Source of the DNA: an uncultured Collinsella sp.
Lineage (GTDB): Bacteria; Actinomycetota; Coriobacteriia; Coriobacteriales; Coriobacteriaceae
Direction of reading: 5' to 3'
Length of the DNA: 64,000 nucleotides
Assembly: GCA_959019945.1 (NCBI GenBank)
Contig: CAUEQD010000006.1
Span: 47,611-111,610, forward strand
Shown here: piece by piece, positions 4,150 through 5,196 of the stretch
How the letters are laid out: every line of letters starts with the position of its first letter
Numbering within the stretch: the first letter of the stretch is position 1
Translations under genes and position numbers: made by a program
The notes under the pieces: model-generated
Told to the model about the DNA's origin: nothing
Database searches by the model: none
What the model saw: only the letters and a program-made list of their open reading frames with translations

Positions 4150-5196
4150 TTAGAATTGTGACAGGACGCTCAGGTCGCCTAGATCATCGTCGATCAGGTC
4201 GATATAGAGGTCGCCGTCCATATTGATGTCTGCAATCAACGATGAGATCTCTTCCATCTCGTCAATCGAGTGCATACGATTGGCCAACGCGGTAACAACG
4301 GGCTTATCCCAAACGGTTGCCATTCCGGCATCGTAGTATTCCTGAAGGCTGTGTTTGCGAACGTTTCCGATGATGAGAGGTATATAGGGGGATGCGACGA
4401 TATCGCCATTGGCGTGGATGGCCACTTGGTCAAATTGCATTTGCAGTTGAGGGAATCTGACCAAGTGGTCGATGGGGTCGCCCCACTCAAGCATGAAATA
4501 GCCTCGATAGTCCGGATCGTATCGAAGGTCATTGATCGTGTTGACTAGTCGACGGTATTGATTATTCGAAGGGCGAATCGTGCGGTTTCTTCGGGCTCTA
4601 CCGAGGAGCATGAGCGGCTGAACTCTAAGGTCAATTCGGTCAGTTCTACCCGACGATTTCAGCTTGTCTCGAAGCATCGTGCAAACTGGTTTGAAATCGT
4701 CGACATTGAACGATGTCGGACAAAAGGCAATTGAAAGGTGCAGTGAGGTTTCGTTCAGCGTGATATCGATGGCGTCGAGCACCCGGTCGTATAATCCCGA
4801 GAGTCCTCGCATATGTTCGTGAGAATCGCGTAGGCCATCGAGGCTAAACTGTATGCCGTTTAAACCGGCGCGTTCGAGCTCATGCAAAGTATTTGAGTTT
4901 GCGAGCAGACCGTTTGACACGAGGTTGCATTTGACGCCAGATGCGCTGAGCCGCCGCAAGGACTCGATGACAAGATCCTTTCGCAGGAGGGTCTCGCCTC
5001 CGCAGAAGCAGAAGCTAAAGGGGTGCATTTGACAAATCGAGTCGACGAGTTCGAGGACTTCGTTGTCGGATAATTCGTTCGCGACGACATCGTTTTCTCC
5101 ACTGTTGTTGAAGCAGTGTAGACAACGAAGGTTGCATTTGTTTGTAATGTCGAGCGCAACGCTGTGGGGCGCTCCGATTATTGCCGGCATGCTCAT
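4150..5196 (-). CDS. Radical SAM enzyme of PqqE/AlbA-like peptide-maturase type with a cysteine-free SPASM-like C-terminal region
   Basis: Motifs: CNLRCLHC, CGGETLLRKDL, VSNG, QFSLDG. The tail VAIHANGDIVASPYIPLIIGNVRKHSLQEYY resembles the end of a SPASM domain, but there is no Cys after residue 172. Confidence 0.9.
   Translation of the reverse strand: MSMPAIIGAPHSVALDITNKCNLRCLHCFNNSGENDVVANELSDNEVLELVDSICQMHPFSFCFCGGETLLRKDLVIESLRRLSASGVKCNLVSNGLLANSNTLHELERAGLNGIQFSLDGLRDSHEHMRGLSGLYDRVLDAIDITLNETSLHLSIAFCPTSFNVDDFKPVCTMLRDKLKSSGRTDRIDLRVQPLMLLGRARRNRTIRPSNNQYRRLVNTINDLRYDPDYRGYFMLEWGDPIDHLVRFPQLQMQFDQVAIHANGDIVASPYIPLIIGNVRKHSLQEYYDAGMATVWDKPVVTALANRMHSIDEMEEISSLIADINMDGDLYIDLIDDDLGDLSVLSQF

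Follow-up and report, generated by a model that had tools for sequence, protein, structure and literature searches.

A putative cysteine-free SPASM remnant in the radical SAM maturase of an uncharacterized ribosomal peptide pathway from Collinsella

The DNA analysed here (the window) comprises 64,000 nucleotides of contig CAUEQD010000006.1 from an uncultured Collinsella sp. (assembly GCA_959019945.1, positions 47,611 to 111,610 of the forward strand) and carries, near its left end, the gene for a 348-residue radical S-adenosylmethionine (SAM) protein. This protein is the catalytic subunit of an uncharacterized pathway for a peptide that is synthesized by ribosomes and modified after translation (RiPP). 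Judged from sequence comparison and structural modeling, its C-terminal half appears to be a remnant of a SPASM domain; Ser269 stands in for the second SPASM Cys, and the CxxCx5CxxxC block is missing. The original prediction, which was drawn from the sequence alone, had described a radical SAM maturase of the PqqE or AlbA kind with a SPASM-like but Cys-free tail, and on both counts it proved sound, the enzyme being a RiPP-type maturase of the PqqE, SkfB or AlbA kind. The relevant parts of the gene are as follows, dN/dS being the ratio of nonsynonymous to synonymous substitution rates.

4150..5196, minus strand: radical SAM maturase gene, 348 residues; PF04055 at 64 bits against a cut-off of 29.5
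5113..5136, minus strand: CX3CX2C cluster motif C21-N-L-R-C25-L-H-C28, invariant in 108 of 108 homologues
4993..5010, minus strand: C63-F-C65-G-G-E, two family-invariant extra Cys residues just before the SAM-binding GGE; 108 of 108 homologues, nearly invariant in 90 remote representatives
4465..4485, minus strand: W238-G-D-P-I-D-H244, a family signature in homologue alignments, at the entry to the SPASM-like domain
4339..4437, minus strand: predicted SPASM-remnant beta-hairpin and GNxxxHSxxEY segment, residues 254-286; Q254-x9-G264-x4-S269 replaces C-x9-15-G-x4-C
4171..4212, minus strand: conserved acidic C-terminal tail DLYIDLIDDDLGDL; family consensus DIYIDLIDxDLNDL
4153..4680, minus strand: Cys-free C-terminal half, residues 173-348; dN/dS 0.094

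The partner gene lies upstream, and its stop codon shares one nucleotide with the start codon of the maturase gene. Pfam recognizes Radical_SAM (residues 17-145) and Fer4_12 in the protein and nothing else; membership of the radical SAM superfamily is evident from C21/C25/C28, from G66-G67-E68 and from a PF04055 score above the gathering threshold. The motifs that had been read as PqqE/AlbA-type are all in place, CNLRCLHC beginning at residue 21, CGGETLLRKDL at 65, QFSLDG at 116 and QVAIHANGDIVASPYIPLIIGNVRKHSLQEYY at 257. Translation of the open reading frame gives a complete set of Cys residues at 21, 25, 28, 55, 63, 65, 90, 159 and 172, the last of these being exactly where it had been said to lie, and positions 4153-4680, which correspond precisely to residues 173-348, encode none. 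With Cys at about 1% of residues, a run of 176 without any is expected by chance in roughly 17% of cases; zero Cys is thus not unusual by itself, and its absence becomes meaningful because the stretch is related to SPASM. With no Cys after residue 172, the protein has neither the SPASM motif (CX9-15GX4C...CX2CX5CX3C...C) nor a set of at least three twitch Cys residues.

The relationship to SPASM is indicated by four independent lines of evidence, each weak or indirect. PF13186 matches residues 254-286 (positions 4-41 of the 67-position profile) with a query E-value of 0.042, which is below threshold, and a sub-threshold match to this first half of SPASM was obtained for 19 of the 19 family C-terminal halves scanned; the best of them has an E-value of 3.4e-4 and scores 21.3 bits where the cut-off is 21.5, and coverage is limited to profile positions 4-45. 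The 254-286 segment is also matched by the SPASM regions of four NCBIfam models, those of the GeoRSP radical SAM protein, NirJ2, TIGR04053 and AhbD, in 17, 14, 13 and 11 of these 19 members, respectively. An AlphaFold2 model based on an alignment of 24 homologues (pLDDT 83.8, pTM 0.86) comprises a partial barrel followed by a strand at residues 234-238, a helix at 240-250, a beta-hairpin at 257-278 and five short helices. When the model was compared with the Protein Data Bank (PDB) using Foldseek, the leading matches were SkfB (E-value 7e-13, TM score 0.63), DesII, PqqE, MoaA, BlsE, viperin and SuiB, with EpeE lower; the alignments span 290-390 columns and thus extend well past the radical SAM core. 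Lastly, the spacing of Q254-x9-G264-x4-S269 can be set against the SPASM motif C-x9-15-G-x4-C, while the second SPASM half, CX2CX5CX3C...C, has no counterpart in the window protein, which has Cys-free helices and the acidic tail instead. A profile of the C-terminal half searched against PDB sequences gave only chance-level matches, and alignments of the whole-family profile end at approximately residue 225, so that residue-level equivalence to the SPASM Cys residues cannot be read from solved structures.

Loss of Cys is a property of the family. Homology searching gave 543 clusters at the 90% identity level; of the best 120, 108 are full-length sequences, and in these the Cys residues were counted. 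The only invariant ones are 21, 25, 28, 63 and 65, with conservation at no other Cys position; 23 of the 108 homologues are devoid of Cys past residue 230, and position 269 is occupied by Ser, Thr or Asp and in no case by Cys. When residues 173-348 alone were used for an exhaustive HMMER search, 218 clusters emerged at 50% identity, of which 146 had E ≤ 1e-10. All 90 full-length representatives inspected carry WGDPxxH ... G264 ... S/T269-x-Y-x-P ... GN; the CxxCx5CxxxC block occurs in the domain of none of these 90, each of which has zero to three scattered Cys residues. The loss of the SPASM Cys residues is thus a family trait rather than a local lesion. Comparison with the 83%-identical orthologue at locus L026, for which synonymous sites are close to saturation, gives a dN/dS of 0.057 over the entire gene and of 0.094 over the C-terminal half; the latter value indicates that the Cys-free domain is maintained by selection. 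The remote members P0162-P0165, P0169, P0170 and P0182 (560-606 residues) possess a Cys-rich C-terminal extension of some 250 residues that has no Pfam match.

The original prediction had left two branches open: a cluster-less derivative with different chemistry, or auxiliary ligands drawn from C55, C63, C65, C90, C159 and C172. The second finds no support. C55, C90, C159 and C172 are poorly conserved (present in 3, 8, 6 and 4 of 24 aligned homologues), leaving C63 and C65 as the only conserved candidates, and two Cys residues are too few for a [4Fe-4S] cluster; the rebuilding of an auxiliary site from upstream Cys residues was therefore rejected.

The genes on either side of the maturase supply its presumed substrate and its presumed leader-binding partner:

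3955..4137, minus strand: precursor gene, 60 residues, with leader MYETPEVEKM and core VPVVVNFAAVVDNVVAAVYDAVVAAYAFWYSADND; dN/dS 0.044
5196..6089, minus strand: partner, 297 residues, with a PqqD-type RiPP recognition element (RRE) at residues 40-102 (approximately 5784-5972) and a GNAT-like domain at approximately residues 150-285 (approximately 5235-5642)

The precursor gene begins 13 nucleotides past the stop codon of the maturase gene and is preceded by an AAGGAG site located 8 nucleotides ahead of its start codon. Together with the PqqD-type RRE and an exporter, this adjacent small gene with its conserved leader gives the locus the makeup of a RiPP cluster. To describe the substrates of the family, 32 distinct small open reading frames on the same strand as the family radical SAM genes, most of them directly downstream, were collected. 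All 32 carry [YF]xxPx[VILMF] among their first 20 residues, and xx[LMIV][GND] usually comes next. The cores are extremely hydrophobic: Val makes up 19.6% of them, Ala 16%, Gly 7%, Cys 0.4% and Lys plus Arg together 1.7%, their best 19-residue Kyte-Doolittle window averages 1.3-3.3, and no core position is invariant across the 32. Among the precursors of closer family members, 15 of 16 carry a conserved Trp (NDYVWQT, GTWLWTE, EWVWETYY); this Trp motif is followed by 20-28 apolar residues and then by an acidic motif (QIDVTP, IEVV, QFDTTYP), a layout which, as far as sequence can tell, is that of a segment spanning the membrane. The window peptide deviates from the others; its aromatic cluster, AFWYS, lies at the C-terminal end of the core. 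Neither Pfam nor NCBIfam holds a family for these precursor peptides.

The start assigned to the partner is that of 752 database copies, and the N-terminal PqqD domain was found in 13 of the 13 orthologues scanned. A profile of the partner family matches SpeG, a spermidine N-acetyltransferase of the GNAT type, over positions 154-280 with an E-value of 1.9e-4. The partner structure predicted from a shallow alignment had a pLDDT of 50, and less than 50 in the GNAT-like domain, so that the GNAT-like assignment derives from the SpeG profile match. The Q/RxxGxG/A loop is missing from this domain and, because the acetyl-CoA pyrophosphate loop of SpeG, QGKG, aligns with non-glycine residues, it may be a non-catalytic scaffold or may use another donor. 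In the remote members P0192, P0202 and P0204 the radical SAM protein and a PqqD domain form one fusion protein, an independent link between the enzyme and an RRE.

From these elements a pathway can be proposed. The PqqD/RRE domain of the partner would bind the YxxPxV leader of the 60-residue precursor, the single CX3CX2C [4Fe-4S] cluster would cleave SAM, and a hydrogen atom would be taken from the Val/Ala-rich core. The C-terminal domain would be a ligand-free SPASM acting only as a structural element or a substrate-binding lid. One or more aliphatic residues may then undergo Cα epimerization, in which hydrogen abstraction is followed by the return of hydrogen from a protein donor; C63 and C65 would be the only conserved thiol candidates for this role. 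The product would be exported by the ABC (ATP-binding cassette) transporter and would act on membranes, the producer being shielded by a DUF1648/SdpI-type protein.

That the enzyme lacks a second metal site is inferred, as are the type of reaction, the residue that donates hydrogen and the bioactivity of the product. With no auxiliary cluster to accept the electron of which cross-linking or dehydrogenating SPASM/twitch enzymes have to dispose, the reaction would most likely be redox-neutral. Redox-neutral hydrogen-atom chemistry with a single cluster, of which Cα epimerization is an example, is accordingly a reading that sequence and analogy allow us to favour tentatively, at somewhat below an even chance. 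The cluster-less branch is preferred because the loss is family-wide, because the domain is under purifying selection and because the substrates have no conserved cross-linkable residue. The original prediction, which had given an epimerase-type reaction as an example of such chemistry, is supported in part. Auxiliary clusters have been described as essential in cross-linking RiPP maturases (PMC8326336), and the only RiPP radical SAM maturases described as having none are the proteusin epimerases PoyD and OspD (PMC13012085). The latter act on the backbone and require no fixed residue pair, which fits substrates that share a composition but no position. A bolder proposal would make the family a new RiPP class, in which transmembrane-like Val/Ala-rich peptides with a lasso-type YxxP leader are modified by an enzyme whose SPASM domain has turned into a metal-free substrate lid, either by epimerization through the Cys pair of strand β2 or by an unprecedented redox-neutral reaction, in both cases without an auxiliary cluster; we regard this combination as rather doubtful.

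Several observations weigh against epimerization by a single-cluster enzyme. Outside the radical SAM core (residues 14-109), the family bears no specific resemblance to YydG/EpeE. C63 and C65 are located on strand β2 beside the GGE motif, unlike the hydrogen donor of EpeE, C223, which lies in a loop across the substrate from SAM (PMC13012085). In the window core, N6, N13 and D20 are spaced seven residues apart, and this stripe, which resembles an amphipathic α-helix, suggests that extensive alternating D/L patterns are disfavoured; at most a few D-residues would be expected from such a helix-like arrangement. The conserved Trp of most close precursors is a possible cross-link site. Finally, C254, C258 and C310 occur together in 8 of the 108 homologues (Paenibacillus, Gorillibacterium, Cellulosilyticum and Clostridium felsineum types), and this subclade might still bind a cluster. 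Its members are P0079, P0085, P0091, P0092, P0101, P0103, P0110 and P0115; C254-x3-C258 lies just before the hairpin, and C254-x9-G264 has the SPASM spacing with Ser269 in the place of the second Cys.

The Trp residues bring up the possibility that the enzyme is a cross-linking or side-chain maturase, forming a three-residue cyclophane or another C-C or C-O link at Trp, Tyr or Phe, or cyclopropanating valine, with the electron returned via the radical SAM cluster. The Trp motif of the closer precursors and the AFWYS cluster of the window peptide could provide the sites, the closest solved relatives (SkfB, PqqE and SuiB) all cross-link, and Val-rich cores are the substrates of TvgB, a radical SAM-SPASM cyclopropylglycine synthase (PMC9062424). 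Such a maturase would, however, depart from all characterized RiPP cross-linkers, which retain SPASM/twitch clusters reported to be essential (PMC8326336). Moreover, several precursors of remote members have no Trp, no core residue is shared across the family, and the aromatic cluster of the window peptide sits at the opposite end of the core. We therefore consider cross-linking unlikely.

The three-Cys subclade bears on another alternative, namely that a second metal site exists and is built differently, from non-Cys ligands (D240, D243, H244, S269, Y271), perhaps with C63/C65, or from ligands of the partner protein or the substrate, so that the enzyme would work as an ordinary twitch/SPASM protein. 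The invariant WGDPxDH lies where the first SPASM Cys region begins, one auxiliary cluster of PqqE has an Asp ligand (PMC8326336), and the subclade retains the SPASM spacing noted above. Yet only two Cys residues are conserved beyond the cluster triad; in remote members D243 is replaced by Glu, Gln, Ser, Asn, Thr or Ala, and R247 varies as well; enzymes with and without the three residual Cys residues share a precursor type; and no [4Fe-4S] site built mainly of Asp, His and Ser is known. A site of this kind appears quite improbable.

The wider setting of the maturase operon includes three further genes:

6701..8320, plus strand: ABC exporter, 539 residues, with membrane and ATPase domains; divergent from the maturase operon, the same type being present in homologous cassettes
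8446..9006, plus strand: 3' fragment of a second ABC ATPase gene, matching only the last ~165 residues of exporter models
1730..2383, plus strand: DUF1648 (SdpI-type) membrane protein, candidate immunity protein; PF07853 E-value 1e-12

Across the family the cassette runs in the order PqqD-containing protein (approximately 290-300 residues), radical SAM protein, open reading frame of 47-67 residues and ABC exporter, with DUF1648/SdpI in addition. This order recurs in Paenibacillus, on a C. felsineum replicon of 330 kb and on gut metagenome contigs; extras in homologous cassettes are an ABC_tran_2 protein, an M16 protease (once) and an ArsR-type regulator beside SdpI (once). In Collinsella loci the DUF1648 gene co-occurs with the cluster. 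The second ABC ATPase fragment, which is probably a pseudogene remnant, has neither a membrane domain nor the Walker A region; it is shorter in L028 and 360 residues long in L026. The GC content is approximately 50% over the first ~9.6 kb against approximately 61% elsewhere in the window, with a GC-rich interruption at 2.4-3.9 kb, and this low-GC island is consistent with acquisition from Firmicutes. The GC-rich stretch (2400..3900, 0.57-0.67) contains a 169-residue open reading frame (2863..3372, plus strand) that is conserved in Collinsella loci and has no family match.

The window comes from a Collinsella of the aerofaciens group. Its copy of the maturase gene is intact; identical genes are carried by many Collinsella genomes, with 100% identity in at least 14 genomes. 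In a genome scan of about 56 Collinsella loci, the match begins only at residue 75 in about 36. The one such locus inspected, L028, has a deletion of ~1.3 kb (L028:6600-7830, equivalent to window ~4975-6250) which takes the partner gene together with the first 74 codons of the maturase gene, where the Fe-S motif lies, and leaves the precursor, ABC and DUF1648 genes untouched. Taken together, these truncated matches and the deletion signify that the cassette is being lost in part of Collinsella, while the window form is intact. Along with the fragmentary second ABC gene and the deviating GC content, they could also be taken to mean that the island is what is left of a bacteriocin locus acquired horizontally and now in decay, its enzyme no longer functioning in Collinsella. 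Against this stand the intactness and identity of the window copy, a dN/dS of 0.06 toward the 83%-identical orthologue with synonymous sites near saturation, and hundreds of intact Firmicutes homologues with the same Cys-free architecture, which is therefore ancestral to the family and no sign of decay. We judge decay to be very improbable.

A second, paralogous cassette occurs in Collinsella (L052-L070), for example in Collinsella sp. i06-0019-1H4, which also bears a window-type locus (L017). Its radical SAM protein is 48-49% identical to that of the window, and it has a PqqD-fusion partner of its own and the precursor MYEKPVVDNMNPTRASTLGTETWFDMYYIVWGANVAVGVTAVGAYELVLITFAAALPLSEQGGQDEQ.

The left edge of the window (1..1573, minus strand) carries another operon of RiPP-like character, whose genes are complete at L014:10628-13579. 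It encodes a 246-residue protein (833..1573, minus strand) with a C-terminal DUF5969 and a middle segment, VNVVLNANAVTNANIILNANGMANANANAQNNANL, which has Asn at alternate positions and recalls the polytheonamide core. A further radical SAM gene, which overlaps this protein's stop codon, exits at the window start; its product has the motif CGAVCDHC, is 359 residues long in L014 and retains C-terminal Cys residues. Its best NCBIfam match is TIGR04078, the YydG-family peptide epimerase (E-value 2e-27, 96.5 bits against a cut-off of 300), the next scoring about 40 bits. The following gene in L014 encodes a HemK/PrmC-like protein amide (N5-glutamine) methyltransferase. By analogy, the combination of an epimerase, an amide N-methyltransferase and an alternating Asn-rich sequence suggests a polytheonamide-like logic in a gut actinobacterium. 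The 246-residue protein was set aside as a substrate of the 348-residue maturase, being confined to Collinsella loci and having its own radical SAM gene.

SPASM/twitch clusters are held to be essential in peptide radical SAM enzymes, and their roles as electron conduit, substrate ligand or structural support are debated. A large conserved family in which the SPASM scaffold is kept and its ligands are lost offers a direct handle on this question. If the reading is true, it amounts to a natural experiment, with sister enzymes that have the three Cys residues (Paenibacillus, C. felsineum) and that do not (Collinsella) taking the same kind of substrate. The family also points to undescribed, very hydrophobic and probably membrane-active peptides from common human-gut Actinobacteria and Firmicutes. 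Genome mining that relies on Cys motifs of the SPASM type, or on those curated families that were searched, would miss or mislabel it; indeed, NCBI names some members "radical SAM/SPASM domain-containing protein" although the ligand set is absent. No description of the family was found in the full-text literature searched, in which subscription journals are thinly covered, and no curated family was found.

Compared with curated families, the maturase gave partial NCBIfam matches over its first ~225 residues (TIGR04133, AhbC/AhbD, NirJ, GeoRSP, StsB, PqqE, MftC and SkfB), all far below the cut-offs: 62.9 bits against 381 for PqqE (TIGR02109), 52.9 against 300 for SkfB (TIGR04403), 58.6 against 265 for MftC (TIGR03962), 88 against 650 and 500 for AhbC and AhbD, 78-80 against 500-650 for NirJ and, as the best, 101 against 425 for TIGR04133. 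The YydG/EpeE model TIGR04078 (cut-off 300) is not among the 25 best NCBIfam families for this protein.

The RREs of lasso peptides recognize a YxxPxL motif, and the YxxPx[VIL] leaders and PqqD-type RRE of the window family are alike; the cassettes contain no lasso cyclase or protease. With the SDP/SdpI system of Bacillus subtilis the cassettes share DUF1648/SdpI membrane proteins, whereas homologues of SdpA, SdpB and SdpC are absent. PoyD and OspD, compared here by description only, are RiPP radical SAM enzymes reported to be devoid of an auxiliary cluster (PMC13012085); they act on cores rich in Val, Ala, Ile and Asn and give membrane-active products. Proteusin precursors have long NHLP or Nif11 leaders, in contrast to the YxxP leader of the window family, and PoyD falls outside the standard radical SAM Pfam/InterPro set (PMC9477430), whereas the window enzyme scores 64 bits on PF04055. 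The leader type and this score are indirect evidence against its membership of the PoyD type (IPR030950). EpeE/YydG is a Firmicute radical SAM enzyme that acts on a short, hydrophobic, membrane-damaging peptide, and its cluster also encodes an ABC transporter; it differs in keeping a [4Fe-4S] cluster in an extended twitch domain and in using C223 and D210, and its similarity to the window enzyme is confined to residues 14-109.

Viperin, DesII and BlsE, radical SAM enzymes related to MoaA and to twitch proteins, operate with one cluster. Ranking high among the structural matches to the model, they provide a precedent for the fold without an auxiliary cluster, although their substrates are nucleotides or sugars and they have no RRE partner. 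With PqqE, SuiB, CteB and anSME the window family shares the barrel, the bridging region, the beta-hairpin and a GNxxxxSLxEIW-like segment; their motif of seven to eight Cys residues is absent, CX9-15GX4C having become Qx9Gx4S. Like PqqE, the window enzyme would rely on a PqqD-type RRE. SkfB (PDB 6EFN) is both the best PDB sequence match (profile E-value 2.5e-25, residues 12-206, same core motifs) and the best structural match (292 aligned columns), and it too matures a toxin peptide. Its RRE is N-terminal in the same chain, whereas that of the window family resides on a separate protein; and it has a Cys-ligated auxiliary cluster and makes a Cys-to-Cα thioether, whereas the window family has no auxiliary ligands and its precursors are nearly free of Cys. 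The window enzyme would work like a leader-guided maturase of the PqqE/PqqD or SkfB type and, by analogy, probably resembles PoyD and OspD, or the single-cluster enzymes viperin, DesII and BlsE, in its cofactor content.

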